Numbered from the stretch's first letter, positions 13,153 through 64,000 are shown. The stretch: 64,000 nt of DNA from Nitrosopumilus sp. (GCA_964225545.1 CAXQPB010000034.1:23853-87852), one strand, 5' to 3'. Notes: generated by a model from the sequence alone, not told the origin. Translations and numbers: made by a program.

Positions 13153-15249
13153 TCAGCGGAAGAAATAGTCCTTGAGCTTCGGCAGCTCGGAGTCAATCTG
13201 CGCCCCCGGGGCGTGCGGCATGAACGGCCCCGGGCCGACACCCGCACGCGACGCGGCGAGCGCGTAGCCGAGGCCGTCGCCGACATCGACGATGAGTCTG
13301 TCGGTTTTGCCGAGGATCTGCAGGGGAACGCGGAGCTGGCTCTCAGAGTCGACCAGCTCCCGCAACGCGGGATCGAGATCCGTCAGAGCCGTCGTGAGTT
13401 CGGGGCCGACGATCAGATTCCCCGACAGCGCCACCGTGCGATCGAACCCGACGAACCCTTCGGCCTCGAGGCGCGCACGCGACAGATTCGCTGCGAGTGA
13501 ACGGACAGCGAGCCCGTCCTCACGGGTCTCGAAATCGAAGGCGAAGCGGCGAAACGCAGTCGTCTTCTCGGCCATCGCGCTCGGATACGCAGCCGCGAGA
13601 TCCTTGACTGCCTCCGGTTTTCCGAGCGTCTCCAGCACGGATGTGAGCACGGCACGGATCAATCCGGTCCCGCTGATTTCACCGCGGTGCAGACCGATCC
13701 GGCCGATCACCCACGGCCCGCGGCTTTCGTTGTAGCCAAGCTCGTAGATCGAATCCATGCGGCCTTTCACATGAAGCCCCGCACCCGGCACAACATTGGC
13801 AGCGAACTGCGCGGCATCGAGATCGTCGAGGTAGCCGCCTCCGTCACCGGTCTCGGTCTCGAGCCTGTAAAGCACGTACAGATCGCCGCTGCCGTCCCAT
13901 ACCTGCTGCTTCCGCTCCACGAAGCGCACTTCATCTTTCCAGTACGTGACCGCGAACGCAGGGTCGGGAATTTTCGCGTTTCCCGCGATCAGCTCCTTGC
14001 CCAGGCACGACACGGAAAGCTCCGCGTTGATCGCAAGCACGCTGCCCTGACAGCTCAGCCCCGAGGCGCGCAAGGACACCAGCGGCAGCAGGCCGTCGAA
14101 GCTGAACTCCGGGATAACCGTTTTGTGTCTTTGAAGCACCTTGGCCATGGAGCCGGTAATGCGCAGCGTGCTGTCGATCGTGGCCTCCGCTCGCCAGCGT
14201 TCGGGGACTCCGAGGTACGACAGTGTCGAGTCGACATCGGCGCCTTCGGTCGTTAGACGCAGGTTCATCTTCCTGTCGCCGGTCGGGTCCATGTATCCGG
14301 TCAACTCGAACGGCACGGGCCCCCATTTCAGCCCGCCCCGGTTGATGCGCAGCTGTCTGGGGTAGAGGCGGGTCTCGGCATTGAAAGAAAGAAGTTCCTT
14401 GCGACTCGCGAATTCGAAACCGACCGTTCCGGTCGCATCGATCTCCAGCGGTTCCGCAGGCGCGCTCTCGTTGCCGAGATCCCCGACCGGTCCGCGAATC
14501 GAGCCTTCCATATCGATCCGGTCCGCGAGCGGGACACCCTCGAAAACTCGAAAGACGTGCGCGAACGCTGCGGGCAGGGTGTTCTCCACCCGGAAGGTAA
14601 GAGCGATTTCAGGAGCGCCGTCCGCGTCGCCCGCCGGGGTTATCGAACCGCTTGCTGCAGCGCTCGAGCCCGAACCGAAGCCTCGCGACGTCAGCTCGAA
14701 TGCAATCGGATCTCCTGCGGCCCGCGCGGGCGCCGTCAGATCGAACTCGACCGCCGTTTCTTCGTCACCGGGAGCGAGCCGACTCATGAACACGGTCGCG
14801 TCGTGGAGCACGATCGGGAACCCCTGTTCGCCGGCGACGAGGCCGGCGACGGGCCCGGAGGCGGCGCGCAGGCTCGCCGAGTCGAGCGGCCGACCGGCCC
14901 GCAGCTTCGGGTTGAAAACATCGACACGCTGAACGGCGAGTCGGCCGGCAAGCAACGGCCCGATCTTCGGAGTGATTCGCAGGTTCGGAACCTCGACGAG
15001 GACCTCACGCTCCGTCTCGCTCTGCTCGCGATTGCCACCCTTGCTCTTGTAGATCTCGATGCCTCTGACATCGAAACCCGGAGGGAACACCGAGACTCCG
15101 ATCGAGCCGCTGTCGAAACTCGCGCCAACCGATTCAGCGAGCTCCGCTCCACGCTCGCTCGCGGATCGGCTTACTGCCGAGCGAGCCTGCCAAAGGCTGA
15201 AGCCCGCCCACGCCACCACCACAGCCAGCCCGATGAGCACCTTACGCAT
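13153..15249 (-). CDS. AsmA-family / TamB-like outer-membrane biogenesis protein (N-terminal signal anchor, long beta-rich body)
   Basis: The signal anchor MRKVLIGLAVVVAWAGFSLWQA is present, and the size and composition fit AsmA-like proteins. Family assignment is by overall pattern only. Confidence 0.5.
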   Translation of the reverse strand: MRKVLIGLAVVVAWAGFSLWQARSAVSRSASERGAELAESVGASFDSGSIGVSVFPPGFDVRGIEIYKSKGGNREQSETEREVLVEVPNLRITPKIGPLLAGRLAVQRVDVFNPKLRAGRPLDSASLRAASGPVAGLVAGEQGFPIVLHDATVFMSRLAPGDEETAVEFDLTAPARAAGDPIAFELTSRGFGSGSSAAASGSITPAGDADGAPEIALTFRVENTLPAAFAHVFRVFEGVPLADRIDMEGSIRGPVGDLGNESAPAEPLEIDATGTVGFEFASRKELLSFNAETRLYPRQLRINRGGLKWGPVPFELTGYMDPTGDRKMNLRLTTEGADVDSTLSYLGVPERWRAEATIDSTLRITGSMAKVLQRHKTVIPEFSFDGLLPLVSLRASGLSCQGSVLAINAELSVSCLGKELIAGNAKIPDPAFAVTYWKDEVRFVERKQQVWDGSGDLYVLYRLETETGDGGGYLDDLDAAQFAANVVPGAGLHVKGRMDSIYELGYNESRGPWVIGRIGLHRGEISGTGLIRAVLTSVLETLGKPEAVKDLAAAYPSAMAEKTTAFRRFAFDFETREDGLAVRSLAANLSRARLEAEGFVGFDRTVALSGNLIVGPELTTALTDLDPALRELVDSESQLRVPLQILGKTDRLIVDVGDGLGYALAASRAGVGPGPFMPHAPGAQIDSELPKLKDYFFR

Positions 15250-15389
15250 GAGGTTAAAGCCTGCCGCCCCGATCCTGATTCCGCGCCCACGAGCCACCTG
15301 ACAACTGTCGCCCTTCGTCGTTCGACGTTGACTGGCTCTCGCCGCCGCGGTAGCCGGATAGTAATCGGCGCTGGATCGCCGGGCAACCA

Positions 15390-16181
15390 ATGAACTCGTA
15401 CGAAAGCATTACGGTGAAAATCGATTCCGGAATCGCGCGGCTGACGCTGAACGACCCGGACCGGCGCAACGCGATGACCCTCTCGATGGGGCGGGAGATC
15501 GAGTCCGCGGTCGAATCTCTCAACGCGGAGCAGGACGTCCGCGTGGTCATCGTCAGCGGTGCGGGCAAGTCCTTCAGCGCCGGCGGCTCACTCGCGACGC
15601 TGGCACGACAGGCCGGCATGGAGGTCGATGGCGAGGACATGGGCGGCGGCCGGGTGTTCTACAACGCGTTCCTTTCACTGCGCGCGCTGCAGATGCCGAC
15701 CATCGCGGCGATCAACGGTCACGCCATCGGAGCCGGGCTTTGCTTCGCGCTCGGTTGCGACATGCGCATTGCCCACGAGCGCGCGAAGATGGGGATGACG
15801 TTCGTGAAGCTGGGCATTCACCCCGGCATGGCGGCGACCTGGAACCTGCCCCGCCTCATCGGTCCGTCCGCCGCTGCGGAGCTGCTGTACACGGGCCGGA
15901 TCATCGACGCCACCGAGGCGCTGCGTATCGGCCTGGTCGGCCGCGTTGCCGGTGATGACTTCGCTGAAATTGTCGATTCGACGGCGCGGGAGATCAGCGA
16001 GAACGGGCCGGTCGCCCTTCGACTGCTCAAAGAGACGCTCGCCGGCACCGCGGGTCGCACCATCGAGGAAGCAGTCGGTCGTGAGGCCGACGCCCAGCAG
16101 CAGACCTTTGAAACCGAGGACGCCCGCGAGGGCATCACGGCAATGATGCAGAAACGCTCTCCGCGCTTCAGCGGACGCTAG
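15390..16181 (+). CDS. Enoyl-CoA hydratase/isomerase (crotonase family)
   Basis: The crotonase fold signature (VVIVSGAGKSFSAGGSL...INGHAIGAGLCFALGCDMRIA) is present. Confidence 0.85.
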   Translation: MNSYESITVKIDSGIARLTLNDPDRRNAMTLSMGREIESAVESLNAEQDVRVVIVSGAGKSFSAGGSLATLARQAGMEVDGEDMGGGRVFYNAFLSLRALQMPTIAAINGHAIGAGLCFALGCDMRIAHERAKMGMTFVKLGIHPGMAATWNLPRLIGPSAAAELLYTGRIIDATEALRIGLVGRVAGDDFAEIVDSTAREISENGPVALRLLKETLAGTAGRTIEEAVGREADAQQQTFETEDAREGITAMMQKRSPRFSGR

Positions 16182-35334: not shown

Positions 35335-35380
35335 GCAGCGCGCCGGATAAGGGTTCGGGTTCAGTCACGAGGCACGAACT

Positions 35381-36031
35381 TTGGCGATCCGAATCAACAA
35401 GGTCTACACGCGAACCGGCGACGACGGACTCACCGGAGTGGTCGGTGGCGAGCGCGTCCCCAAAACCAGTCCACGCATCGCCGCCTACGGCGATGTCGAC
35501 GAACTGAACAGCGTAATCGGTATCGTCAGAGCGGAGCTCGCAGATGTACAGGATGCGGCGGGCGGGCAATCTGCACGCGAGCTCGATACCACGCTCGGGT
35601 TCATCCAGCAGGAACTCTTCGATCTCGGCAGTGAACTGGCGACGCCGCCGGAGGCGGAGTACGAGGGTATGATCCGTATGGGCGAAGACCAGGTGACGCG
35701 CCTGGAGTCGTTCATCGATGATCTCCAGTCAGAGCTCGAGCCGCTCGAGTCGTTTGTACTCCCCGGCGGCGGAAAAGCAGGAGCGATGCTCCACCTTGCG
35801 CGTACGGTCTGCCGCCGAACCGAACGCCTGGTCACCGGACTGGTCCAGGGCGAAGACGCGTCGGTCTGGACGGCCCGTTATCTGAACCGGCTCAGCGACC
35901 TTCTGTTCGTACAGGCACGATGGATCGCCGCTCGCACGGGGCATGCGGAGACCCTCTGGCAACACGGGCTGGAGGTGCCCGAGAGGCGCAAAGACGCTCG
36001 CGAAAGCGCGAACGGAAAGAACGATGAGTGA
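35381..36031 (+). CDS. ATP:cob(I)alamin adenosyltransferase, PduO type
   Basis: MAIRINKVYTRTGDDGLTG...SPRIAAYGDVDELNS is the MMAB/PduO family N-terminus. Confidence 0.8.
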   Translation: MAIRINKVYTRTGDDGLTGVVGGERVPKTSPRIAAYGDVDELNSVIGIVRAELADVQDAAGGQSARELDTTLGFIQQELFDLGSELATPPEAEYEGMIRMGEDQVTRLESFIDDLQSELEPLESFVLPGGGKAGAMLHLARTVCRRTERLVTGLVQGEDASVWTARYLNRLSDLLFVQARWIAARTGHAETLWQHGLEVPERRKDARESANGKNDE

Positions 36032-36704: not shown

Positions 36705-36920
36705 GCCGCGCCCGGCAGGCTTTCAAGCCACCCGTTTTGCGCAGGGCCGCTTGCGGTTCCGGACACCTTTCACTCCTTGCCCCCCCTACAGGGTAGCCCG
36801 CTGCCGCGGGTGCTTAGCGCACCGCGGCATTGACGACAGCGCTCAAACCCCCCGAAAACGCGAACCCGAGGTCACTACTTATTGACCGCACAAACCGCGA
36901 CGCTCAATCGGCTTCCTCAC

Positions 36921-36950
36921 TTGACAGAAATCGAGCGGCGCCAGTATTTT
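36921..36950 (+). promoter_or_regulatory. Sigma70-like promoter (TTGACA, 18 nt, TATTTT) heading a roughly 170-nt leader upstream of the Cys-rich protein gene
   Basis: Seen directly: TTGACAgaaatcgagcggcgccagTATTTT. An AAGGAG RBS lies 9 nt before the ATG at 37124. Confidence 0.35.
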
Positions 36951-37123
36951 CCCCGGGCGTTCGCGCGGCGGCCCGTCTGGACTGCCGACGGACCGGGTCA
37001 GAGGCGGAAGCGACTCACGTCGTTGTCCATCCTGCGCTGAAAAGAGATTTTCACAGTTTCGGAACGCCGGTCGGGGCGGAAGCCTCGGGGGATCCCATAC
37101 TTACCATTAAGGAGAATACAGGT

Positions 37124-39178
37124 ATGAAGGGCAGATCGATTTCTAAGGTCATCGCCATCTGCGGCGCTGTCGCATTCAGCTTCGCAAGCGCCGCCCAGGC
37201 GCAGGTGACGGGCGACGACGCCAAGTGCCGCGCCACGATGAACAAGGGCGCAGGCAAGTACGCATCAACGGCGAACAAGGCCGTCATTGGCTGTTTCAAG
37301 GACGCCACGAAGGGCAAGAACGCGCTGACAAGCTGTACGGACCCGACGACTGCCGACACCAAGGGCAAGGTTCCCGGTGCGCGACAGAAGCTCGTCGACT
37401 CGGCCGCCAAGTGCGCGGCGCTCCCTCCAAGCTATGTGACGTGTCCCTCTCCGGGAACGGTCGGAGCCATCGGCACCACGAGCGACCTCGGAAACTGTCT
37501 GGGGGAGGTAGTGGAACCAGCCGCCGGAATCGGCACTGTCGAGACCTTCTGGAACTACATCCTTCGGGCCAACCCGCAGGATGCGATCTGGCAGGACAAG
37601 AACGCCAACAAGTGCATCAACTCGATCACCAAGAACGCGGGCAAGCTGTTTGACACCGTCATCAAGACCTGCGGCAAGCTGCAGGCCGGCAGTGACAAAG
37701 GCGGCGGCCCTTACGCCTACCAGTACGACGCGACCTGCGACGACAAAGGAAAGATCGGAAAGTCTGTCGTCAAGCTGAACGATGCAATCGCCAAGGCATG
37801 CACCCCGGCACCGGCCGGAACCATGACCGCGCTCCAATCGTGCACGACCGACATCTCCGAGCTCGGCAGCTGCATCGCAGCCTCGGCGCGGAAGACGGCG
37901 TCGGGCGTCAGCGGTGTTTCTTTCTCGATGCCGGGCGTCTGCCCGGCGTCGGTAACCGTCATCGGCCTCGGAACGGTTCAGGTCCCGGGCGAGAACACAG
38001 CCACCAGCCTGAGCGTCGGCCAGAGTGGCCTCGGACACAATGCGGAGCTGCCTGAGGGCTTCAGAGGCGCCGTCAGCCTCAACTGCGCAGCATCAAGCGG
38101 CACCTGCGACACCTGCGCAGTCACGGCGTCCTGTGCAGAAGGCAACTGCCGCTGCGAAAACGACCCGACAGTCACGTGCGACGAGCCGTTCGGCCCGGAT
38201 GCTGACAATTGCGCAGGCAACAACTGCAAACTGTTCTTCGCGGCGCCTCTTCCGCTCTCCGCCGGCGGTGCCTTCACCTGCGTCGTCAACGAAATCCCGA
38301 GTGATCTCGTAGGCACGGCCAATATCGGCACCGGTCAGTCGAACACCGCGGTCGCCAACTCGTCGTCGATCTGGATCAACGGCACGCAGAGCCGGCCGTG
38401 CCCGGTCTGCGAGGGCGATCCCACGCCGAACGACGGAGTCACGGGCGGAACCTGCAGCGGCGGCCAGCAGAACGGCGGCGCATGCGACGCCAACTTCATC
38501 AACCCGGTATTCGGAAACACCAGCTACGACTGCCAGCCGACCAATGGTCAGTCGGTAGCAACGCTGAGCCTGCAGATCGACTTCAGCGATACGGACAAGT
38601 CCAAGGCATCCGACGTAGTCTGCACGTCGGGCGATCCCGCAGGCTGCCCGTGTAACGTCTGCAGCAGCGACCCGACGATCCCCTGCGATTCGGACGTTGT
38701 CTGTGCAAACGCGGGCGCCGGCACCTGCACCTCGGCCGGACCGGGCGCACCCACGGTGTCGAATGGCTGCGACACGCTTGACTGCGGCGCCGACGGCTTC
38801 TGCGCTGATGGAACAAGCACCCTTTCGTGTGACGGATTCACAAAGCAGGGCGGCGGCGGCATTATCGGCTGCACAACGAACGCTGACTGCACGGCCCTCG
38901 ACGCCGAGTGCCCCGGCGGAAGCTGCGGAAACTGCACACTGCTCGAGCCGCGGGCGTGCTTCCCGAACCCGATCGTCAACGACTCGGGCGTTCCCGCCAC
39001 CGACGGCGCGATCCTCACAGCGCAGTTCTGCGTGCCACCGAGTGGCACCGGAGTGGATCAGGCAGCTGGAACCCCCGGCGCGGGTGACCTGACCATTCAG
39101 TGGGACTTCGTCGGCCTCTGCGACGATGGCTCCACGGTCTACGAGCTCGGAGGCAACAACTGCCCTCCTGCCCCATGA
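37124..39178 (+). CDS. Secreted, extremely cysteine-rich protein (684 aa), unknown family
   Basis: A strong RBS and a signal peptide MKGRSISKVIAICGAVAFSFASAAQAQ are present. The mature protein has more than 60 Cys in irregular CxC/CxxC/CxxxC spacings and Gly/Thr/Asp/Asn-rich low-complexity stretches. The N-terminal third is Lys-rich and carries two related K-C-x5-K-x-AGK-x10-C segments. Codon usage is native. The track ORF is trimmed to the internal ATG. Confidence 0.6.
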   Translation: MKGRSISKVIAICGAVAFSFASAAQAQVTGDDAKCRATMNKGAGKYASTANKAVIGCFKDATKGKNALTSCTDPTTADTKGKVPGARQKLVDSAAKCAALPPSYVTCPSPGTVGAIGTTSDLGNCLGEVVEPAAGIGTVETFWNYILRANPQDAIWQDKNANKCINSITKNAGKLFDTVIKTCGKLQAGSDKGGGPYAYQYDATCDDKGKIGKSVVKLNDAIAKACTPAPAGTMTALQSCTTDISELGSCIAASARKTASGVSGVSFSMPGVCPASVTVIGLGTVQVPGENTATSLSVGQSGLGHNAELPEGFRGAVSLNCAASSGTCDTCAVTASCAEGNCRCENDPTVTCDEPFGPDADNCAGNNCKLFFAAPLPLSAGGAFTCVVNEIPSDLVGTANIGTGQSNTAVANSSSIWINGTQSRPCPVCEGDPTPNDGVTGGTCSGGQQNGGACDANFINPVFGNTSYDCQPTNGQSVATLSLQIDFSDTDKSKASDVVCTSGDPAGCPCNVCSSDPTIPCDSDVVCANAGAGTCTSAGPGAPTVSNGCDTLDCGADGFCADGTSTLSCDGFTKQGGGGIIGCTTNADCTALDAECPGGSCGNCTLLEPRACFPNPIVNDSGVPATDGAILTAQFCVPPSGTGVDQAAGTPGAGDLTIQWDFVGLCDDGSTVYELGGNNCPPAP

Positions 39179-46870: not shown

Positions 46871-47545
46871 GTGTCCTCTACGAACAGCTTCTCCATCCAG
46901 CCCGAAAAAGTCCGCGCCGTGGTCTTCGACCTCGGTGGAGTCCTGATCGAGGGCGGCCCGTCCGAAGTGGTCGCTTTCGGCAGTAGAATCGGACTCGACC
47001 CCGAAAAATGGGAGGTCCTGCGACGGGAGATCTTCGGAAACGACAGTCCGTGGGCCCGACTCGAGCGCGGTGAACTCGACTTCGAGCACTTCATCGCAAC
47101 TTTGAAGGCCCGGCTCGCCGACAACGGCGTAGAGGTGAGCGACGAGGTCGCGCGAACGTTTCTCGGCGATCCGCGACCGCTCGGCGACACCGAAAAGCTG
47201 CGACCCGAGATGATCGATGCCGTGCGAAGGTTGAAGTCGGCGGTATCAACGGCGCTGCTTACCAACAACGTTCGGGAGTGGCGAAGCGGCTGGCGTGAGG
47301 CGATCGATCTGGACAGCCTGTTCGACGTCGTCATTGACTCCAGTGAAGTCGGCGCCCGCAAGCCGGAGCCGAAGATCTACGAAATCACCCGCGAAAAGCT
47401 CGACGTCGAAGCGGGCGAGATCCTCTTCGTCGACGATATAGGCCAGAACCTCAAGGCCGCTCACCGGCTCGGTTGGCAGACCCTGCTGTTCAAGGAGATC
47501 GCGCCGACGATCGAGGTCCTCGAAGCGGTGCTCGCCGGCCGATGA
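46871..47545 (+). CDS. HAD-superfamily hydrolase (subfamily IA)
   Basis: Motif [10 protein letters not shown] and the C-terminal motif FVDDIGQN are present. Confidence 0.7.
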
Positions 47546-49149
47546 GAAGGCTCGCCAGCCAGGTTCGACCGGGTTCGGAAGAGTTCCGCGCGAATGATGC
47601 GGCGATGCGAGCGCTGTCCGCCGAGTTGAAACAGCGATTGAAGGCAGCGTCGCGTGGCGGACCGGACCGCGCACGTGAGCTCCACGAGAGCCGGGGCAAG
47701 CTGCTTCCTCGCACGCGCGTCGAACGGCTGCTCGACCCCGGCTCCCCGTTCCTCGAGCTGTCGCCGCTGGCGGCGGGCGGCATGTACGACGATCAGGCCC
47801 CCGGCGCGTCGATCCTCACCGGGATCGGCACGATCCACGGACGCAAGACGGTGATCGTCGCCAATGACGCGACCGTCAAAGGCGGCACCTACTTCCCGAT
47901 GACGGTTAAGAAACACCTGCGCGCGCAGGAGATCGCTCTCGAGAATCGGCTGCCGACAATTTACCTCGTCGATTCCGGCGGCGCCTTCCTGCCGATGCAG
48001 GACGAGGTGTTCCCGGACCGGGATCACTTCGGTCGCATCTTCTACAACCAGGCCACGATGAGCGCTGCGGGCATCCCACAGATCGCGGTCGTCATGGGCT
48101 CGTGTACGGCCGGCGGCGCCTATGTCCCTGCGATGTGCGACGAATCGATTATCGTCCGCGAGCAGGGGACGATCTTCCTCGGCGGCCCGCCTCTGGTCAA
48201 AGCGGCCACCGGAGAGGAGGTCAGCGCGGAGGACCTCGGCGGTGGGGACGTCCATACGAGTCGATCCGGTGTGGTCGATCATCTCGCCGAAGACGATATC
48301 GATGCCATCCGCATCGCCCGTGAGATCTTCGAGAACCTCCCCGCCGAGAGGACGCCCGCGATCGAACTGACGGAGCCGGAGGCGCCGGCCTATGATGCGG
48401 CAGAGCTTTACGGCATCGTGCCGCCCGACAACCGTCGACCGTACGATGTTCGAGAGGTCATCGCGCGGATCGTCGACGGCAGCCGCGTTTCGGAATTCAA
48501 AGCGCGCTACGGAACGACGATCGTCACGGCGTTCGCACGTATTCACGGCATTCCGGTCGGAATCGTCGCCAACAACGGCGTGCTGTTCTCCGACTCCGCG
48601 TTGAAAGCGACGCACTTCATCGAGATGTGCTCGCAGCGCCACATCCCGCTGGTCTTCCTCCAGAACATCACCGGCTTCATGGTCGGACGCGACTACGAGG
48701 CGGGCGGAATCGCCAAGGACGGCGCCAAGATGGTCATGGCCGTGAGTAACGCCCGCGTCCCGAAGGTCACCGTGGTAATCGGCGCGTCCAACGGCGCGGG
48801 CAACTACGGGATGTGCGGCCGCGCCTACAGCCCCAGATTCCTGTTCATGTGGCCCAACGCCCGTATCTCGGTCATGGGCGGCGAACAGGCCGCGTCGGTC
48901 CTGCTCAGCGTCAAGCAGGCGCAGCTCGAAGCCGCCGGAAAGGCCATGAGCGAAAAAGAGCAGCAGGCCTTTCAGCAGCCGATCCTCGACAAGTACGACC
49001 GGGAGGGGAGTCCGTACTACAGCACGGCGCGCGTGTGGGACGACGGTGTGATCGATCCGGTGGATACCCGCGATGTGATCGGACTGTCGCTGGCGTCGAC
49101 CCTTGCGACCGCGGACGAGCCTTCGCGCTTCGGCGTCTTCCGCATGTAA
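47542..49149 (+). CDS. mccB: 3-methylcrotonyl-CoA carboxylase beta subunit (carboxyltransferase)
   Basis: Extended identity to MCCase beta: [66 protein letters not shown] and [16 protein letters not shown]. The ATG at 47542 overlaps the stop of the HAD gene. Confidence 0.8.
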
Positions 49150-49167
49150 CGGGGAGCGGGGCGCAAC

Positions 49168-50748
49168 GTGTCGGGACAACGTCGAAAGAGCCATGACGGC
49201 AAGCCTGCGCGCAAGCCGATTCAGCGGCTGCTGATCGCAAACCGGTCGGAGATCGCGTGCCGGATCATCCGTACGGCGCGCGACATGGGCATCGAGACCG
49301 TCGCCGTTTACTCCGAGCCCGACAGGCCAGCGGCGCATGTATCGCTGGCCGATCAGGCGGTCGCGCTCGGCGGCGATTCGCCCGCGACGAGCTATCTGAG
49401 CATCGAGAGAGTGATCGACGCAGCCCGGAAGTCGGGTGCCGACGCGGTCCATCCCGGCTACGGCTTCCTCGCCGAAAACTCCGGGTTCGCCGCCGCCTGT
49501 TCGGCCGCCGGCCTGACGTTCGTCGGACCCGCCCCGGGGGCGATCGACGCCATGGGCGACAAGATCCGCGCGCGGGAGCTGGCACGCGACTGCAAGCTCC
49601 CGCTGGTCCCGGCTGCCGAGCTGACAGGAGATGCGAAGCCCGACGCGAAGGCGGCCTCCGCGCTCGGCTACCCCGTGCTGGTCAAAGCAGCGGCGGGCGG
49701 CGGCGGACGCGGCATGCGCATTGTCGAGACAGCAGATGCGCTCGAAGACGCCGTCGCGGCGGCCAGGCGGGAAGCCGCGAGCGCGTTCGGCGACGACCGC
49801 GTTTTTCTCGAGAAGTATCTCTCCGAGCCGCATCACATCGAGATTCAGATCTTCGGCGACGGCAACGGCGGCGTCGTTCACCTTGGCGAGCGCGAATGCT
49901 CCGTGCAGCGTCGTCACCAGACGATCATCGAAGAGGCCCCCTCACCGATGGTCGGACCGGCGCTGCGCGATCGTATGGGCGAAGCGGCCATACGACTGGC
50001 CGGCTCGATGGACTACGCGGGCGCAGGGACCGTCGAGTTCATCGTCGACGGCAGCGGCGATTTCTACTTCCTGGAGATGAACACCCGACTCCAGGTCGAA
50101 CACGCCGTGACGGAGATGATCACCTCTACGGACCTTGTCCGCTGGCAACTCGAAGTCGCCTCCGGCTCGGGGCTGCCGATTGGAGTCGGCCACACCCCTG
50201 CCGGCTCCGGACATGCGATCGAGTGTCGTATCTACGCGGAAGATCCGTCAGCCGGGTTTTTGCCGACTGCGGGGCGGGTCGAGCGCGTCGAACATCCGGC
50301 CGGGCCCGGGATACGGGTCGACTCCGCGCTCTACGACGGCTTCGACGTCCCTCTCGAGTACGACCCGATGCTCGCGAAGATCGTCGCGTGGGCGCCCGAT
50401 CGCGCGCAGGCGATCGAGCGGATGCGCGGAGCGCTGCGCGAGACAGCGATCCTCGGCGTAGGAACCAATGTCGCGTTTCTTCTCGACATCCTGGCTGACC
50501 CCTCCTTCCGCGACGGCACCTTCACGACCACCACGGTCGGCGAGCGCTACGCAGACTGGAGGCCCGACCCGAGCGGCCTGTCGATCGCTGCAGCAGCGGC
50601 AGCGATCCTCTGCGCCGCAGCCGTGCCACCCGGCGGCGACCGCGCCGCGCGCGGGACGGCCGCCAGCATCACCGATCCGTGGCAAACGCTGGCCGGATGG
50701 CGACACGGACGGAGGGCGGAGCCGGCAGAACGAGGCGACGAGGAATAA
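49168..50748 (+). CDS. Biotin carboxylase (alpha subunit of MCC, biotin carboxylase domain only; no BCCP domain)
   Basis: The ATP-grasp biotin carboxylase region IQRLLIANRSEIACRII...GGGGRGMRIV is present. A GTG start is preceded by GGGGAG. The ORF ends at TAA 50746-50748 before any biotinyl domain. Confidence 0.8.
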   Translation: MSGQRRKSHDGKPARKPIQRLLIANRSEIACRIIRTARDMGIETVAVYSEPDRPAAHVSLADQAVALGGDSPATSYLSIERVIDAARKSGADAVHPGYGFLAENSGFAAACSAAGLTFVGPAPGAIDAMGDKIRARELARDCKLPLVPAAELTGDAKPDAKAASALGYPVLVKAAAGGGGRGMRIVETADALEDAVAAARREAASAFGDDRVFLEKYLSEPHHIEIQIFGDGNGGVVHLGERECSVQRRHQTIIEEAPSPMVGPALRDRMGEAAIRLAGSMDYAGAGTVEFIVDGSGDFYFLEMNTRLQVEHAVTEMITSTDLVRWQLEVASGSGLPIGVGHTPAGSGHAIECRIYAEDPSAGFLPTAGRVERVEHPAGPGIRVDSALYDGFDVPLEYDPMLAKIVAWAPDRAQAIERMRGALRETAILGVGTNVAFLLDILADPSFRDGTFTTTTVGERYADWRPDPSGLSIAAAAAAILCAAAVPPGGDRAARGTAASITDPWQTLAGWRHGRRAEPAERGDEE

Positions 50749-50755
50749 CCCCGGA

Positions 50756-51301
50756 ATGAGCTCGCAATACGAGATCGAGGGCAGGAGGCTGCGGTTGGAG
50801 TTGCGATCCGTCGATTCGGGATCGGTTGTGACCGTTGCCAACGACACCGCCGACGAGCGTTCCGACAAGCCTTCCGACGACAGCCTCACACCCGAGATCC
50901 GGCTCGAGGGCTTCAGCGTGGATGCGCGCTTCGTAACGCTCCGTATCGGCGGCCGCTCTCACCGCCTGGCCTACCATCGAGACGGGAAGACGCTCAGCAT
51001 CGCGGTAGACGGCCGTGTCTTCGAGTTCCGGCCGTACGACGAGGACGACGCCCCGGAGGCGGTCGCAGGCGCATTCCAGCGAGAGATCATCTCGCCGATG
51101 CCCGGAAAGGTTCTCGAAGTCCTGGTCAGCAGCGGCGACACCGTGGCCGTGGACGCGCCGCTGTTCCTCGTCGAGGCCATGAAGATGGAGCAGACCGTGC
51201 GCGCGGCATCGCCGGCGCTTGTCGAGCGAGTCTTCGTCGAGCCGGGGTCCCGCGTCGGCCCCGGGGACACGCTGTGTACGCTCGCTCCTGTCGAAGACTG
51301 A
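50756..51301 (+). CDS. Stand-alone biotin carboxyl carrier protein (biotinyl/lipoyl domain, EAMKM)
   Basis: The C-terminal PMPGKVLEVLVSSGDTVAVDAPLFLVEAMKMEQTV motif is present. The ATG lies 8 nt after the carboxylase stop, in a different frame. Confidence 0.7.
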   Translation: MSSQYEIEGRRLRLELRSVDSGSVVTVANDTADERSDKPSDDSLTPEIRLEGFSVDARFVTLRIGGRSHRLAYHRDGKTLSIAVDGRVFEFRPYDEDDAPEAVAGAFQREIISPMPGKVLEVLVSSGDTVAVDAPLFLVEAMKMEQTVRAASPALVERVFVEPGSRVGPGDTLCTLAPVED

Positions 51302-53284: not shown

Positions 53285-54247
53285 GTGAGTAACGTACTGA
53301 TTTACGCTGAGCACGCACACGGCGACCTGCCGAAGGCGACGGCGATTGCGGTCGCAGCCGGCAAGAAGGCTGCTTCGATCACCGGCGGGGAGACCGTCCT
53401 CGCCGTTCTGGCGGACGACCTCTCGGGCCTGGCCGAGAAGGCCGCTGCGCTGGGCACGACCAAGGTCGTGACCATCGAGAACCCGCTGCTGGCGCATGCC
53501 AACGCGGACGTCACCGCCGCGGCCCTGAAGGCGGTCGCCGACAGCACCGGCTGCACATTCGTGGTGTTCGCATCGACGACGACCGGAAAGGACGTCGCGC
53601 CTCGCCTCGCGGGCGCGATGGACGCGGCGATCGCGACCGATGTGACAGGCATCAACGACGACGGCACCCTGGTACGGCCGATGTACGCGGGCAACGCTTT
53701 CGCCACTGTCGAGTTGCACGGCGAGAAGAAGATCATCACCGTCCGAACCACCGCCTTCGACGCGGACGCCGGCGGCGGCAGCTCAGCAGTCGAGGCGGGG
53801 TCGGCCGATGTCGCGGCACCGGCGAACCCGATCGAGTTCGTGAGCGCCGAAGAGACCAAATCCGACCGGCCTGTCCTCACGGAGGCCGAGCGTGTTGTCT
53901 CGGGCGGTCGCGGTCTGAAGTCCGGCGAGAACTTCACGACGGTTCTCGAGCCCCTCGTCGATGCGAGGGGTGCCGCGATGGGCGCGAGCCGTGCGGCAGT
54001 CGATGCCGGTTACGTGCCCAACGACCTGCAGGTCGGTCAGACCGGAAAGGTCGTCGCGCCGACGCTGTACATCGCGGTCGGCATCTCGGGCGCCATCCAG
54101 CACCTCGCGGGGATGAAGGACTCGAAGGTCATCGTATCCATCAACAAAGACGCGGAGGCGCCGATCTTCTCGATCTCCGACTACGGGCTCGTCGCCGATC
54201 TGTTCGAGGCGGTCCCGGAGATGACGGAAAAGGTCAAGAGCCTCTGA
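53285..54247 (+). CDS. etfA: Electron transfer flavoprotein alpha subunit
   Basis: A GTG start is present, and the C-terminal FAD-binding region is [32 protein letters not shown]. Confidence 0.9.
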
Positions 54248-56561: not shown

Positions 56562-58583
56562 TCAGGCCAGCGCGTCCGCGACCAGTTCGAGAATATCGCG
56601 GGTCTGAACGGTCGCGTCCGCCTGTTTCTCTTTCACGCCGTCGCTGAGCATCGTCATGCAGTACGGACACGCTGATGCGATCACGTCGGGTTCGGTTCCG
56701 AGCAGTTGCTCGACGCGTAACGTGTTCACGCGCTGGGTCGGCTCTTCGTCGATCCACATTCGCCCGCCGCCGGCGCCGCAGCACATTCCTTTGTTCTTGC
56801 TGCGACCGGCTTCCTTGCGGATCACTCCAGGCAGCGCTTCGAGAATCTGCCGGGGTGCGTCGTAGACGTCGTTGTAACGGCCGAGGTAGCACGAATCGTG
56901 GTAGACGATCGATGCCGCCTTTCCGTTGGAGAGCTGCACCTTGCCCTCCTTGATGAGGTCCGCGACCAGCTCGGAGGCGTGTACACACTCGTAGTTACCG
57001 CCGAACTGCGAGAACTCGTTCGCGATGGTGTTGAAGCAGTGCGGGCAGTTCGTGATGACCTTCTTGACGTTGTAGCCATTGAACGTCTCGACGGCCACGG
57101 ACGCCATGCTCTGGTACAGGTACTCGTTGCCGAGCCGGCGAGCCGTATCGCCGTTGCAGGGCTCTTCTTTTCCGAGGATCGCGTAGCTCACCCCGGCTGC
57201 GTCGAGGATCTTCGCCACCGACTTTGTGATCTTCTTGGCGCGGTCGTCGAACGACCCGGCGCAGCCGACGAAGAACAGATACTCGGCGTCGGGTTTCTCC
57301 GAGATGTGCGGGATATTGAGTCCTTCCGCCCACTCATCACGCTTGTCGGAACCGACGCCCCACGGGTTGCTCTGCCGCTCCATGCCGTTGAAGGTGCGCG
57401 TCAGCTCGGGCGGGAAGTCGGCCATCTCCTGGACGAGGTAGCGGCGCATGTCGACGATCTTGTCGACGTACTCGATGTGCACAGGACACGCCTCTTCGCA
57501 CGCACGACACGTGTTGCAGGCCCAGATGACCTCCGCAGTCACGCCCGTATGTTCACCGATGACGACCTCCTCGTTTTCGGGATCCATCACCGACTCGGGG
57601 TGCTCGTACAGGTAATTGCGCAGATCGAGAAGCATCTGGCGCGGAGCCAGCGGTTTGGTCGTCGCGGTTGCCGGGCACTCGGCTGAGCAGCGACCGCACT
57701 CGGTGCAGGTGTACATGTCGAGCACCTGCTTCCAGTCGAAGTGCTTCATCTGCGAGGTGCCGTAGATCGCGTCTTCGCTCTCGAGGTCCTGCTTCGACAG
57801 CCGGCCGTACGGCTCGAGTTTGGTGAAGAAGACGTTCGGGATCGATGTGATCACGTGGAAGTGCTTCGACAGCGGGAGCAGGTTCAGGAAGGTCAGAACG
57901 ACCAGGTTGTGGATCCACCACGATGCGTTGCTGACGTTGAGGGCGGTGTCCTTGCCGAACCCGGCGAGGAAGTTCGCCGCCAGGGTCGAGATCGGCGCCC
58001 ACTTGCGTTCCAGGTCGGTGTGATGCTCGCCGTCGAGGAAGACCATCCGCCCGCCGTCGTACAGGATGCCGGTCATGCAGATCGTCGAGATGAAGCACAG
58101 GATAAGGATCGCCTCCCAGTGCGACTCTCCGGCAAGCTTGGTCTCGGCCGGCTGGAAACCGTACAGACGCTTCGGGTGCGTAATCAGCCAGCGCACCAGA
58201 AGCGCAATCGCGCAGCAGATGACGACCGCCTCCATGATGTCGCGGACGAACATATAGGGGCCGCCCAGCATGTCGGGGCTCAGCAGAGGCAGATAAGCAT
58301 CCGGCAGCCATCCACGCAGGAACATCGTCGTGACCTGCGCGCCGAGGACCAGGAAACCCCAGAAAACGAGCGCGTGAATAATCCCCGCCGGTTGATCCTG
58401 GCCGGGATTGAAGAACTTCATCTGCGCGATCGCGCCGACGAGCATCTGTTTGATGCGCTCGGGCATGCGATCGAAGCGCGGTGCAGAGCGGAGCTTGCCC
58501 AGCACCCGCAACCTACGCCACATCTGCCACGAGAACAGGCTCAGGAAGCCAAGCAGACATACAGTCCAGATCAATGCGCTCAC
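56562..58583 (-). CDS. Membrane-bound (Fe-S)-binding oxidoreductase, HdrD/GlcF-like (two 4Fe-4S ferredoxin motifs plus CCG domains, N-terminal polytopic membrane domain); EtfAB-associated type
   Basis: The N-terminal 5-6 TM region is followed by CTECGRCSAECP, CNTCRACEEACP and Cys-rich CCG-type repeats (CNGD, CCGAGGG, CPYC). Confidence 0.8.
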   Translation of the reverse strand: MSALIWTVCLLGFLSLFSWQMWRRLRVLGKLRSAPRFDRMPERIKQMLVGAIAQMKFFNPGQDQPAGIIHALVFWGFLVLGAQVTTMFLRGWLPDAYLPLLSPDMLGGPYMFVRDIMEAVVICCAIALLVRWLITHPKRLYGFQPAETKLAGESHWEAILILCFISTICMTGILYDGGRMVFLDGEHHTDLERKWAPISTLAANFLAGFGKDTALNVSNASWWIHNLVVLTFLNLLPLSKHFHVITSIPNVFFTKLEPYGRLSKQDLESEDAIYGTSQMKHFDWKQVLDMYTCTECGRCSAECPATATTKPLAPRQMLLDLRNYLYEHPESVMDPENEEVVIGEHTGVTAEVIWACNTCRACEEACPVHIEYVDKIVDMRRYLVQEMADFPPELTRTFNGMERQSNPWGVGSDKRDEWAEGLNIPHISEKPDAEYLFFVGCAGSFDDRAKKITKSVAKILDAAGVSYAILGKEEPCNGDTARRLGNEYLYQSMASVAVETFNGYNVKKVITNCPHCFNTIANEFSQFGGNYECVHASELVADLIKEGKVQLSNGKAASIVYHDSCYLGRYNDVYDAPRQILEALPGVIRKEAGRSKNKGMCCGAGGGRMWIDEEPTQRVNTLRVEQLLGTEPDVIASACPYCMTMLSDGVKEKQADATVQTRDILELVADALA

Positions 58584-58655: not shown

Positions 58656-59186
58656 TTGAGCGCCGACGTGAAAGTGTTCGCAGCAGTGCGAGAAAGACCA
58701 CGAAAAAACTGTTTTTTCCTGTCAGTCCGCGCGCTTTTCCTGTTCGGAGTCGTCTTCAGCGGTGGATCGTGCAGCGACGCATCGGATTCACGCGTGATCC
58801 TGCAAGGTGACGGACGAGAGGTGCCTGTCACGGTCGAGTTCGCTCTGACTCCGGCGAGTCAGGCCCGCGGACTCATGTGGCGCGACGAGCTCGCTGCCGA
58901 CCGCGGTATGCTCTTCGTCTTCGGCGACTCACGCCCACGCTCGTTCTGGATGAAGAACACCCCATTGCCGCTCGACATCATCTACATCAGCGAGGACGCG
59001 CGGATCGTCTCGATCGCGGAACGAACCACGCCATACTCGACGAAGTCCATCCCCTCTGGCCTGCCCGCGCGGTACGTCCTCGAGGTGAACGGCGGATTCT
59101 GCGAAGAGCACGGTGTCACAGCCGGCTCACAGGTGGTGTTGCCGAAGATTCCGCCGAAACCGGCAGCCGCACGAACGGCACCCTAA
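58656..59186 (+). CDS. DUF192 domain protein with signal peptide
   Basis: The DUF192 core MLFVF...[15 protein letters not shown]...YVLEV is present. The start is uncertain (TTG at 58656 or GTG at 58686). Confidence 0.6.
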
Positions 59187-59488
59187 GTACCCGTCCGGGC
59201 ACGCGGATTTCCTTGTCTTGGTGCCGCTTTGGCGTTATCCAAGCGGTTGCGCGGTCGGGGGTGCACCGACCGGGCGAATGCCTCATGACCGCTCCGGGAG
59301 TCCGGCCGACGCGGTCGGCGGGACGGGATAACTTTCAGCGGGATCCACCGGGATTCAGCAGGATTCGACGAGACGCGGCATCGAGCGGCACGACCCGGCC
59401 TGAACCGGCCTGCACCCGTCAACCGCACTGCCGATCTGTTTCGGGCAGCAGCGAGCCGGATCAACGGCAACGAGGACTTTGGAACGAT

Positions 59489-61039
59489 ATGGCGAGGAGT
59501 GAGGTTCTGGAAGAACTGGGCCGGCGCGAGGCGGAAGCGGAAGGCGGCGGCGGTCCCGAGCGGATAGCGAAACGGCACGAGCGCGGGCTGATGACAGCCA
59601 GGGAGCGCGTCGAGGCGCTCTTCGATCCGGGCAGCTTCGTCGAGATCGACAAGCTGAGGGTGCACCGCTGCAACGACTTCGGCATGGAGAATTCGCGGGT
59701 TGCCGGTGACGGCATCGTAACCGGCCACGGAACCGTCGAGGGTCGAACCGTTTTCGCGTTCGCGCAGGACTTCACCGTGCTCGGCGGCAGCCTCAGCCAC
59801 ACCGTTGCCGAGAAGATCTGCAAGGTACTCGAGCTCGCGATGAAAGCCGGCGCTCCGGTCGTCGGATTGAACGACTCGGGAGGCGCGCGCATCCAGGAAG
59901 GCGTCGAGAGCCTCGGCGGCTACGCGGATATTTTCTGCGCGAACACGCTCGCGTCCGGTGTCATCCCGCAGATCTCCGGGATTCTCGGACCCTGCGCCGG
60001 CGGCGCGACCTACTCCCCTGCCCTGACCGACTTCATCTTCATGGTCGACAAGACCAGCTTCATGTTCATCACCGGGCCGGAGGTCATCAAATCGGTCACG
60101 CGTGAAGAGGTGACGCAGGAAGACCTCGGCGGAGGCGCGACCCACAACTCGCGCAGTGGCGTCGCACACTTCCTGGCCGGCAACGATGCCGAGTGCATCG
60201 CGATGATCCGCAGGCTGCTCGGCTACCTTCCCCTGAACAATATGGAAGACCCGCCGGTCGTCGAATGTGACGATCCGCTTGATCGACTCACGACCGAGCT
60301 CGAGGGTGTGGTGCCGGACAACCCGAATCAGCCCTACGACGTCCATACGATCATCGACGCGACGGCCGACCGCGACAGCTTTTTCGAGGTCCACGCGAGC
60401 TTCGCACGCAACGCCGTTGTCGGGTTCGCGCGTATCGGCGGGCGCAGCATCGGCATCGTCGCGAACAACCCGATGGTCCTCGCAGGCTGCCTCGATGTCG
60501 ACGCGTCGAACAAGATCGCCCGCTTCATCCGTTTCTGCGACTGCTTCAACATTCCGATCGTGACGTTCGAGGATGTCCCCGGCTACCTGCCCGGCACCTC
60601 GCAGGAGTGGGGCGGCATCATCCGGCATGGCGCGAAGATCGTGTACGCCTATGCGGAGGCCACGGTGCCGAAGATCACGCTGATCACGCGCAAGGCCTAC
60701 GGCGGCGCCTACTGCGTGATGGGCTCGAAGCACATCCGCGCCGACGTGAACATGGCCTACCCCAACGCCGAGATCGCGGTCATGGGGGCCGACGGCGCGG
60801 TCAACATCATCTTCCGCGGTGAGCTCAAGAAAGCCGAAGACGCGCAGGCGCGTCGAACCGAGCTGGTTGACGATTACCGCCGCCGCTTCGCGACGCCGTT
60901 CCGGGCGGCCGAGCTGGGTTATATCGACGAGGTCGTCACCCCTTCGCAGACCCGGGTTCGTATCGCGCAGTCGCTGGCAATGCTCGCCAACAAACGCGAC
61001 ACGAATCCGCCCAAGAAGCACGGCAACATTCCGCTCTGA
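59489..61039 (+). CDS. mmdA: Methylmalonyl-CoA decarboxylase alpha subunit (carboxyltransferase, PccB/12S family)
   Basis: This is a 516-aa acyl-CoA carboxyltransferase ([25 protein letters not shown]...[18 protein letters not shown]). It heads an operon with OadG-like, biotin-carrier and OadB-like genes. The track ORF is trimmed to the ATG at 59489. Confidence 0.8.
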
Positions 61040-61084
61040 TTGCGGATTCGAGACGTGGACCCAGCGATCACGAGCGGGCTCAAC

Positions 61085-61384
61085 ATGACCGTCGTCGGAC
61101 TGGCGACGGTCTTCGCCGCGCTTGCGCTGCTCCTCGCTGTCGTAACGGTCACGAGCCGGATTCTCGATCGGTTCGAATTGTCTTCCGCCGAACCGGTCTC
61201 ACGGACCGGCGACGACCCTGCAGACCGGCCGCAAACCGGTCGAGCGAACGACGAAACGCTCGCCCGCGTCGCGGTGGCTGCGTACGCGCTTCATTGCGCG
61301 CACCGGGTTCACGTCCGGTGGCCCTCCGCGGCCTCGCCCTGGCTGCGGGCGGGCAGGCAGGACCAGGTCGATCACAACAGGTAG
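61085..61384 (+). CDS. OadG-like small membrane subunit (decarboxylase delta/gamma), His-rich C-terminus
   Basis: A single TM helix (MTVVGLATVFAALALLLAVVTV) and a C-terminal AAYALHCAHRVH, reminiscent of the OadG His-rich tail, are present. The gene sits between the carboxyltransferase and biotin-carrier genes. Confidence 0.5.
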   Translation: MTVVGLATVFAALALLLAVVTVTSRILDRFELSSAEPVSRTGDDPADRPQTGRANDETLARVAVAAYALHCAHRVHVRWPSAASPWLRAGRQDQVDHNR

Positions 61385-61390
61385 GGCACG

Positions 61391-61861
61391 GTGACGGTCT
61401 ATCGCGTAAAGACAGGAGGAAAGGAATACGAGGTCACCGTCCGTGACACACCCGGAGGCGGGGCGGAAGTCACTGTCGAAGGGCAGACTTTCCACGTCGA
61501 CGCGGCGGGCGATGGATCCGGGGCCTCGGCCACAAACCGACCTCCAACCCCGGCACCGGTACCTGCGCCGGCGACCACGCCGATCAGGCTTGCCGCCACT
61601 GCCGTATCCACCGCCGAACCCGCTGCGCATGCACGTGTCCGATCGGGAGCGGGCGCGGTTGTTGCTCCGCTTCCGGGCGTTGTGACACGGATTCTCGTGG
61701 CTGTCGGTGATCGCGTCGAGGCCGGACAGGTGGTCCTCAAGCTCGAGGCGATGAAGATGGAGAACGATATCTCGACCGCGGTGGCAGGAACCGTCAGGCA
61801 CGTCGAGGTCGCAGACGGGGCGGAAGTCAGCGACGGCCAGCTGCTCATGGTCGTCGAGTAA
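61391..61861 (+). CDS. mmdC: Biotin carboxyl carrier subunit of Na+-translocating decarboxylase (Ala/Pro-rich linker plus biotinyl domain)
   Basis: A GTG start is present. A Pro/Ala linker precedes PGVVTRILVAVGDRVEAGQVVLKLEAMKMENDI. Confidence 0.75.
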   Translation: MTVYRVKTGGKEYEVTVRDTPGGGAEVTVEGQTFHVDAAGDGSGASATNRPPTPAPVPAPATTPIRLAATAVSTAEPAAHARVRSGAGAVVAPLPGVVTRILVAVGDRVEAGQVVLKLEAMKMENDISTAVAGTVRHVEVADGAEVSDGQLLMVVE

Positions 61862-61875
61862 ACAGAGCGCGCACA

Positions 61876-62997
61876 ATGATCGACGCGCTTCTCAATTTTT
61901 TCGCGGGCACAGGCTTCGCTCTTTTTCCGCGAAACCCTCTGAACCTCATCATGGTCGGCGTCGGGCTGACCCTGATCGGTCTCGCGATACGCAAGCAATA
62001 CGAACCGCTGCTGCTGATTCCGATCGGCTTCGGCATGATCATGGGAAACATTCCGGGTGCCGGGGCATCACCGGATGAACCCGGAGTCATCCACTATCTG
62101 TACTTCGGCATCCGCCATGAGATCTATCCGGCGCTGATCTTTCTCGGCCTCGGTGCAATGACCGACTTCTCCGCGCTGCTCTCACAACCCAGGCTGATGC
62201 TGCTCGGCGCAGCAGCCCAGGTGGGAATCTTCGCGACCTACTGGGGCGCCCTTCAGCTCGGCTTCACACCGCAGGAAGCCGGCTCGATCGGGATCATCGG
62301 CGGAGCCGACGGGCCGACCACGATCTTCATTACCGCTGCGCTGGCACCCGAGCTGCTTCCGACCGTGGCGATCGCGGCCTACTCGTACATGGCGATGGTG
62401 CCGATCATCCAGCCGCCGATCGTTCGGCTGCTCACGACTCGCGAGGAACGGCGGATCCGGATGAAGGCTCCGCGAGAGGTGCGGAAGACGGAGCGGATCG
62501 TATTTCCGATCATCGGCTTCCTGACCTGCACTCTGGTCGCGCCCGCAGCGACGACCCTGCTGGGCATGTTCTTCTTCGGGAATCTGCTCAAAGAGAGCGG
62601 GGTTACCGACCGGCTGGCGGCGACCGCGAAGACCGCCTTCATCGACTCGGTGACCATCGTGCTGGGGATCTGCATCGGCGCCGGGGCATCCGCCGAGCGC
62701 TTTCTGCGACCGGAATCGTTGATGATCTTCGGGCTCGGCCTGGTGGCCTTCGCGGTGGCGACCGCCAGCGGGGTCCTCCTCGGCAAGCTGATGAACCGTT
62801 TTGCCCGCGATCCGATCAACCCGATCATCGGGGCCGCAGGAGTTTCGGCGGTCCCGATGGCCGCCCGGGTCGCCCTGACGACCGCCCAGCGCGAGGATCC
62901 GACGAATTTTCTGATCATGCACGCCATGGGGCCCAATGTCGCCGGTGTGATCGGCTCCGCTGTCGCGGCGGGTGTCTTACTATCGGTTCTGGGCTAA
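61876..62997 (+). CDS. mmdB: Sodium ion-translocating decarboxylase beta subunit (OadB/MmdB/GcdB family)
   Basis: This is a polytopic membrane protein with the conserved GGADGPT and [15 protein letters not shown] motifs of OadB. Confidence 0.85.
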
Positions 62998-63044
62998 ACA
63001 TCTGGGGCAGGCACTGGACAAACGACGGAGGACTGACGGATCGA

Positions 63045-64000
63045 TGGCCGATTACAAGAAGCAGTACGAGGACTGGCAGGAGTCGACGCTGAACCCCGCG
63101 CTCAGTAAGAACGGCGAGCGCAAGGACCTTTTTGAGACAAGCTCGGGGATCCCGGTCGAGCGAATCTACGGCCCGGGCAACGGCGGCGGCTACCCCGACG
63201 GGCTCGGGCTTCCCGGCGTCTACCCGTTCACGCGGGGCGTCCAGCCGACCATGTACCGAGGTCGCCTCTGGACCATGAGGCAGTACGCCGGTTTCGGCAC
63301 CGCCGAGGAGTCCAACAAGCGTTACCGCTACCTGCTCGAGCAGGGAACGACCGGGCTCAGCGTGGCTTTCGATCTGCCGACCCAGATGGGTCGCGACTCG
63401 ACCCATGACCTGTCGACCGGTGAGGTCGGTAAGGTCGGCGTTGCAATCGACTCTCTCGAGGACATGGAAGTCCTCCTGAAGGACATCCCTCTCGACAAGG
63501 TCACGACTTCGATGACGATCAATGCGACCGCATCGATCCTGCTCGCGTTGTATCTCGTCGTCGCCGAGAAGCAGGGTGTGCCGTGGTCAAAGGTCGGCGG
63601 CACGATTCAGAACGACGTACTCAAGGAGTACATCGCGCGCGGGACGTACATCTACCCGCCGTCGGCGTCGATGCGGATCATCACCGACATCTTCGCGTTC
63701 TGCACCGAACACGTGCCTCGGTGGAACACGATTTCGATCAGTGGCTATCACATCCGTGAAGCCGGCTCGACGGCTGTTCAGGAAGTCGCGTTCACACTCG
63801 CGGACGCGATCGCATACGTCGACGCCGCGCTGAAAGTGGGGCTCGATATCGATGCGTTCGCCGGACGGCTCTCGTTCTTCTTCAACGTCCACAACAACTT
63901 CTTCGAGGAGATCGCGAAGTTCCGAGCCGCTCGCCGGCTGTGGGCCAAGATCATGCGGGAGCGATTCGGCGCGAAGAACCCGCGATCGTGGATGCTGCGA
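63045..64000 (+). CDS. Methylmalonyl-CoA mutase large subunit, N-terminal part (3' end outside window)
   Basis: I translated this region by hand, as it is not in the ORF track. [12 protein letters not shown]...[60 protein letters not shown] is the MCM substrate-binding barrel signature. The reading frame is still open at the window end. Confidence 0.85.

Follow-up and report, generated by a model that had tools for sequence, protein, structure and literature searches.

Can a run of sodium-pump genes placed directly before a mutase gene be read as a methylmalonyl-CoA decarboxylase, and in which direction would such a pump work in its host? The question is raised by the final 4.5 kb of a 64,000-nucleotide stretch of DNA from Nitrosopumilus sp. 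(GCA_964225545.1 CAXQPB010000034.1:23853-87852), referred to below, at its full length, as the window. In this region, five co-directional genes lie on the + strand with intergenic gaps of 6-46 nt. Based on our analysis, the first four encode, with a probability of roughly 80%, an (S)-methylmalonyl-CoA decarboxylase (EC 7.2.4.3) of the Veillonella/Propionigenium type, one that is bound to the membrane, depends on biotin and translocates Na+. The fifth codes for the catalytic subunit of a methylmalonyl-CoA mutase, so the locus would link succinyl-CoA to propionyl-CoA.

The predicted decarboxylase operon and its sodium site

The operon opens with the alpha subunit (59489-61039, 516 aa), a PccB/12S-type, MmdA-like acyl-CoA carboxyltransferase (CT; PF01039, Carboxyl_trans, E 1.5e-195). 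It is followed by the delta subunit (61085-61384, 99 aa), an OadG-like single-pass membrane anchor that matches PF04277 (OAD_gamma) with 38 bits, the Pfam cut-off being 27 bits, and by the gamma subunit (61391-61861, 156 aa), a small MmdC/1.3S-like biotin carboxyl carrier protein (BCCP; PF00364, Biotin_lipoyl, E 3.8e-17). The beta subunit (61876-62997, 373 aa) belongs to the OadB family of Na+-translocating carboxybiotin decarboxylases (PF03977, OAD_beta, E 2.1e-149). The last gene (63044-64000, 318 aa visible) is cut at the window end and encodes the catalytic, substrate-binding subunit of an adenosylcobalamin-dependent mutase of the methylmalonyl-CoA type (PF01642, MM_CoA_mutase, E 1.7e-134). 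A sequence-only reading that preceded this work had placed the four decarboxylase genes and the mutase at 59489-64000, and each of them was recovered there, on the + strand, with a Pfam domain match. That reading had also described a PccB-type carboxyltransferase, a biotin carrier with a Pro/Ala linker and an OadB-family membrane subunit, all of which are borne out by Pfam and NCBIfam matches and by sequence motifs. The same holds for the Veillonella/Propionigenium pump architecture directly upstream of a mutase, the gene order being alpha, delta, gamma, beta and then mutase.

In Veillonella parvula and Propionigenium modestum, all genes of the methylmalonyl-CoA decarboxylase (Mmd) form one operon, and the delta subunit is analogous to OadG (PMC11575231). 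The locus described here is much alike, with a PccB-type alpha, an OadG-like delta, a small gamma carrier and an OadB-family beta in a single operon of order A-D-C-B; genes for a biotin carboxylase (BC), a 5S subunit or OadA were not found within it by Pfam. The five genes have a GC content of 0.63-0.64, in line with the remaining window. No B12 or other riboswitch was matched by an Rfam scan of the whole window. Between positions 58500 and 64000, a sigma-70 promoter scan returned no promoter-like site, and terminator-like sites were no commoner than in the shuffled background.

The beta subunit scored 478.8 bits against NCBIfam TIGR01109, a generic model named 'sodium ion-translocating decarboxylase subunit beta' with a cut-off of 190.6, and shares 57% identity with Salmonella OadB (6iva/6iww) across 303 aligned residues. 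In Salmonella OadB, the substitutions D203A and S382A abolish Na+ binding and N412A weakens it, while E40, R304, N311, S419, Y229, N373 and G377 are essential or structurally required (PMC7274780). The three Na+-site residues have exact counterparts in the window protein (D145, S324 and N354, respectively), and the earlier call of a sodium pump, which depended on them, holds. Identical residues also stand at the positions of E40 (E43), Y229 (Y171), R304 (R246), N373 (N315), G377 (G319), R389 (R331) and S419 (S361), and N311 is replaced by a threonine (T253). For comparison with relatives, the distribution scan used one genome per species and 80 loci were kept. The equivalents of E40, D203, Y229, R304, N373, G377, S382, R389, N412 and S419 were invariant in all 80 beta relatives, which come from many phyla. 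The N311 equivalent varied among them (N in 34, T in 31, S in 8 and D in 5).

Compared with the OadABG systems of Salmonella, Klebsiella and Vibrio, the likeness thus extends from beta identity and the retained Na+ site to a single-helix OadG/delta with a His-containing C-terminal region. The window beta differs from OadB in being of the short type, without the enterobacterial insertion of about 55 residues between OadB residues 62 and 118, as well as in the N311 to Thr replacement.

The gamma subunit starts with a short N-terminal beta segment, YRVKTGGKEYEVTV, followed by a Pro/Ala linker (P+A 44% across residues 41-90) and by an EAMKM biotinylation motif containing Lys122. It aligned with PRK05641 over residues 6-153, and its best NCBIfam alignments were with small stand-alone carriers.

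The delta subunit has one hydrophobic helix, which covers residues 1-28 of the 99-aa form that public gene callers start at the ATG at 61085; an alternative TTG at 61040 would give 114 aa. Its tail had been described as His-rich, and the window sequence does hold four His in the final 30 residues (positions 70, 73, 76 and 97). This is not a feature of the family, however: in an alignment with seven related genomes, the tail pattern AAYxxHxRR...SxW...AGR was conserved, but only the first His (AAYxxH) was kept, the remaining His positions being Arg in close relatives. In this lineage, delta carries a basic tail that runs about 30 residues past the Pfam OAD_gamma model, a C-terminal extension by which it differs from the Veillonella/Propionigenium Mmd. 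This basic tail may serve as a docking segment for the soluble subunits.

One public contig (GCA_041245915.1, JBESJN010000211.1) shows a single T-to-G difference at window position 61382, which changes the delta stop codon from TAG to GAG and fuses delta in frame with the biotin carrier into a 258-aa protein. Such a fusion was not found among 54 other species-level loci and is therefore a rare allele or a sequencing error.

Modelled on characterized enzymes, the predicted complex would work in four steps. The soluble alpha subunit would move the carboxyl group of (S)-methylmalonyl-CoA onto the biotin at gamma Lys122, releasing propionyl-CoA. The carboxybiotin would then swing to the membrane-embedded beta subunit and be decarboxylated there, which would drive Na+ through the membrane by way of the D145, S324 and N354 site. 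The OadG-like delta subunit would anchor the soluble parts to beta. Both the sodium coupling and the assembly of such a complex are what we infer from the subunit sequences.

The carboxyltransferase, the mutase and the substrate

Among solved structures, the alpha subunit matched best the beta subunit of propionyl-CoA carboxylase (PCC; 3n6r, 684 bits), followed by the transcarboxylase 12S subunit (576 bits), with the glutaconyl-CoA decarboxylase subunit GcdA far behind (3gf3, 104 bits; 1pix, 89 bits). It carries the oxyanion motifs CAGGA and YGGAY. The sequence-only reading had noted that grouping with GcdA would change the substrate call; alpha is not GcdA-like, and glutaconyl-CoA decarboxylase was ruled out for lack of a GcdA-type carboxyltransferase. 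Oxaloacetate decarboxylase was likewise ruled out, since an OadA-type TIM barrel with its fused biotinyl domain was present neither in the cluster nor among about 55 window open reading frames (ORFs) scanned; the PccB-type carboxyltransferase is a difference from OadABG, in which OadA has that architecture. A methylmalonyl-CoA:pyruvate transcarboxylase was rejected as well: no 5S/HMGL-like gene occurs in the cluster or the window, and membrane subunits are found instead. We infer methylmalonyl-CoA as the substrate from the family of alpha, from its partners in the operon and from the mutase, which starts 46 nt after the beta gene.

The adjoining mutase supports this substrate. It scored 473.6 bits against NCBIfam TIGR00641, and public contigs carrying the same locus give its full length as 551 aa, comprising the catalytic domain only, without a B12-binding domain. 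Its best match among solved structures was the 2-hydroxyisobutyryl-CoA mutase HcmA (4r3u). That identity was rejected: Tyr81 (RQYAGF) and Arg199 (IARGTY) of the window mutase align with Tyr and Arg of the methylmalonyl-CoA mutases of P. shermanii (1req) and human, whereas HcmA has Ile and Gln at these positions. They correspond to the substrate-site residues Tyr89 and Arg207 of the P. shermanii numbering. At this signature pair, isobutyryl-CoA mutases have Phe/Gln and 2-hydroxyisobutyryl-CoA mutases Ile/Gln.

These residues bear on the idea that the pump acts on a different carboxy-acyl-CoA, for example malonyl-CoA, instead of or besides methylmalonyl-CoA. The Veillonella enzyme also accepts malonyl-CoA, and alpha Cys409 falls, by alignment, at the position of D407 of Methylorubrum extorquens PccB, which corresponds to D422 of Streptomyces coelicolor PccB, a specificity determinant. 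Beta-linked alpha subunits can have L, C, I, D, V or A here, and so the position is not diagnostic. The true PCC beta 3n6r also lacks an Asp there (it has Val, and 1vrg of T. maritima has Ile), and the mutase next to the operon has the signature residues of methylmalonyl-CoA. We consider a different substrate improbable.

Several results nevertheless weigh against the reading of the operon as a methylmalonyl-CoA decarboxylase of the Veillonella/Propionigenium type. In contrast to the enzymes of those genera, three of its subunits fall under NCBIfam equivalog-level cut-offs: alpha aligned with TIGR01117 (mmdA) over its full length but reached 813 bits for a cut-off of 998.8, delta reached 30.6 bits for 36.05 (TIGR01195), and gamma also scored under the cut-off of its model. 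Also different from those enzymes is the lack of an epsilon subunit; the gaps of at most 46 nt are too small to hold its gene, and none was called in identical contigs. In V. parvula and P. modestum, epsilon is an accessory subunit and not a defining one. A third point is that genes for a B12-binding subunit, an epimerase and MeaB were found neither in the 10 kb downstream nor among the about 55 ORFs scanned in the 64 kb upstream. A fourth concerns the host, as the closest lineage is a predicted aerobe with a H+ ATP synthase and propionyl-CoA assimilation, which is the opposite of the classical fermentative direction. Finally, alpha shares 58% identity with genuine PCC beta subunits (3n6r, 6ybp) and 49-62% with the alphas found next to a beta gene in other phyla, and the two groups are intermingled in a neighbor-joining (NJ) tree. 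Neither identity, nor the NJ tree, nor the D407/D422-equivalent residue discriminated between MmdA and PccB, and sequence alone does not tell the two apart.

This last point allows for the alternative that alpha is really, or is also, the beta subunit of an ATP-dependent PCC with a BC partner encoded elsewhere, its adjacency to oadB and oadG then reflecting a shared subunit or an accident. Alpha is as close to true PCC beta (Ruegeria 3n6r, Methylorubrum 6ybp) as to beta-linked alphas, shares with it full-length similarity and the active-site glycine motifs, and lies near it in the NJ tree; in the IMG database, a cluster mate with at least 90% identity is named 'propionyl-CoA carboxylase beta chain'. 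A possible partner also exists in the window, as a separate BC (49150-50748) and a BT-plus-biotinyl protein (50756-51301) lie about 9 kb upstream, and in actinobacteria a single BC subunit serves several CT subunits. However, this BC, the only one in the window, directly adjoins a CT of its own, of the AccD1/MCC type (821 bits to 4q0g). The operon, unlike PCC loci, has no PccA partner; membrane pump subunits and a stand-alone small carrier of the 1.3S/MmdC type flank alpha, and many phyla share the alpha/delta/BCCP/beta order with its minimal gaps. A PCC beta subunit in this operon seems to us an unlikely explanation, and we retain the decarboxylase pump as the probable one.

The upstream genes form a second acyl-CoA carboxylase system (47347-51301), consisting of the AccD1/MCC-type CT followed by a split alpha subunit, the BC and the BT-plus-biotinyl protein. 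A frameshift in this alpha subunit (ORFs 49150-50748 and 50462-51301) was considered and rejected: the second protein has its own ATG at 50756, 8 nt past the first stop, preceded by AGGA. The substrate of this carboxylase is uncertain, because the usual leucine-catabolism genes do not flank it.

Conservation and taxonomic neighborhood

More than 565 species-level genomes were found to encode a beta relative. In 62 of the 80 loci compared, an alpha gene lies upstream of beta, and a mutase is nearby in 11; the phyla represented include Acidobacteriota, Gemmatimonadota, Chloroflexota, Myxococcota, Zixibacteria, Krumholzibacteria, Cloacimonadota, Deferribacterota and Desulfobacterota. Near-identical proteins already have names in IMG, where cluster mates of at least 90% identity are called 'sodium ion-translocating decarboxylase beta subunit' and 'Na+-transporting methylmalonyl-CoA/oxaloacetate decarboxylase gamma subunit'. 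The operon is widespread and already annotated routinely by public pipelines, and the earlier suggestion that it sits in a lineage not classically associated with this pump could not be upheld. A literature search combining Binatia, decarboxylase and propionate found nothing.

The eight closest beta relatives (74-83% identity) belong to metagenome-assembled genomes (MAGs) labelled Myxococcales, Deltaproteobacteria, UBP10_UBA1149 and Candidatus Binatia; UBP10 corresponds to Binatota (PMC8262859). The taxonomic neighborhood of the locus is Binatia-like. Five of these eight species-level MAGs, with 73-84% protein identity for alpha, beta and mutase, keep the whole order of iron-sulfur (FeS) oxidoreductase (- strand), DUF192, alpha, delta, BCCP, beta and mutase. 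The DUF192 (COG1430) gene, at 58821-59186 in the window, lies between a membrane FeS/CCG oxidoreductase (56562-58583, - strand) and the decarboxylase operon. Its placement is kept in the five related genomes; it has no evident link with the pump. In two related MAGs (beta 74% identical), a thioredoxin-reductase-like gene immediately precedes delta, BCCP and beta, and neither a carboxyltransferase nor a mutase lies nearby; the alpha gene is evidently located at another place in these genomes.

The exact sequence of the beta protein was found on 23 public contigs, three of which match the window from 59000 to 64000 identically or with 1-2 base differences. MAGs that hold this locus include GCA_041257185.1 and GCA_041245915.1. 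In the identical contigs, the mutase is followed by genes for RNase R, an HtrA-type protease, Hsp20, a HAD hydrolase, an LplA-like protein and an S49 peptidase. The sequence-only reading had proposed to look downstream for the mutase small subunit, an epimerase and meaB; they are not there, nor do they follow the mutase in related genomes. Genes for an epimerase, a B12-binding subunit and MeaB must lie at other places in the genome. Only 19 nt separate the mutase stop codon from RNase R, whose own stop codon overlaps the start codon of htrA, and the transcription unit may therefore continue past the metabolic genes. Apart from the mutase, one B12-related gene was seen in the window; it encodes a PduO-type ATP:cob(I)alamin adenosyltransferase (35351-36031) and lies 27 kb upstream of the mutase.

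A comparable association is known from Xylanibacter (Prevotella) ruminicola, in which the mmd genes adjoin mutAB (PMC11575231). Both loci place decarboxylase genes beside methylmalonyl-CoA mutase genes, but in the window all four subunit genes and the mutase gene point the same way within a single cluster, and the mutase is of the split type, represented by its catalytic subunit only.

Host metabolism and the direction of the pump

From the operon together with the EtfAB and FeS oxidoreductase locus, a syntrophic or fermentative lifestyle had been proposed. Neither the electron transfer flavoprotein (ETF) nor the taxonomic neighborhood supports this. EtfA (53285-54247) scored 266 bits against the Paracoccus ETF and 265 bits against the human one, compared with 145-162 bits against the bifurcating ETFs of Acetobacterium, Acidaminococcus and Clostridioides, so that the neighboring ETF is of the aerobic, non-bifurcating type. 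The closest genomes, labelled Binatia/UBP10, are predicted to respire aerobically. The host further differs from Veillonella and Propionigenium, which are fermenters, in being Binatia-like, high in GC and a predicted aerobe. For Binatota, a published analysis infers aerobic respiration through an electron transport chain and a H+ F-type ATP synthase, and regards the methylmalonyl-CoA pathway as a route of propionyl-CoA assimilation; pccA is listed and a Na+ decarboxylase is not mentioned.

The sequence-only reading had allowed for both Na+ export and the reverse. Such a host raises the alternative that the pump is reversed, the Na+-motive force driving the carboxylation of propionyl-CoA to (S)-methylmalonyl-CoA, which the mutase would convert to succinyl-CoA. 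This would give a respiring, Binatia-like organism an ATP-free route of assimilation. Reversal of Mmd was reportedly demonstrated in vitro by Dimroth and Hilpert in 1984. The assimilatory role given to the pathway in a predicted aerobe fits this alternative, as do the genes related to beta-oxidation in the window, which include an enoyl-CoA hydratase and a 3-hydroxyacyl-CoA dehydrogenase in addition to the aerobic-type ETF and the membrane FeS oxidoreductase. Reverse operation of Mmd has also been proposed for Cloacimonadota (PMC13082233). On the other hand, the pump is not known to act as the physiological carboxylase of any organism, the listing of pccA for Binatota means that an ATP-dependent route may exist, and the sequence says nothing on direction. 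We regard reversal as a minority possibility, to be taken more seriously than either the PCC or the other-substrate explanation, and a complex of the decarboxylase sodium-pump type, which may run either way in vivo, as the probable product of the operon.

A stronger version of this idea, which we consider highly speculative, is that in Binatia-like aerobes the sole PccB-type carboxyltransferase sits in the Na+-pump operon, and that the pump, reversed by a respiratory or marine Na+ gradient, carboxylates propionyl-CoA in place of an ATP-dependent carboxylase. Propionyl-CoA may come in that case from odd-chain or alkane degradation or from the ethylmalonyl-CoA pathway. If true, this would be the first case of an aerobe with a physiological Na+-driven carboxylase.

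Two long ORFs elsewhere in the window, at 13153-15408 (- strand, about 750 aa) and 36818-39178 (+ strand, about 787 aa), have a coding-like GC3 but no Pfam match.

The operon reveals no new mechanism, architecture or unexpected distribution. What it adds is a well-conserved, predicted decarboxylase sodium pump in Binatota, an uncultured phylum predicted to be aerobic. As the published reconstruction of this phylum lists only the ATP-dependent propionyl-CoA/methylmalonyl-CoA route, the locus can help to correct pathway maps; it also poses the question in which direction the pump would run.

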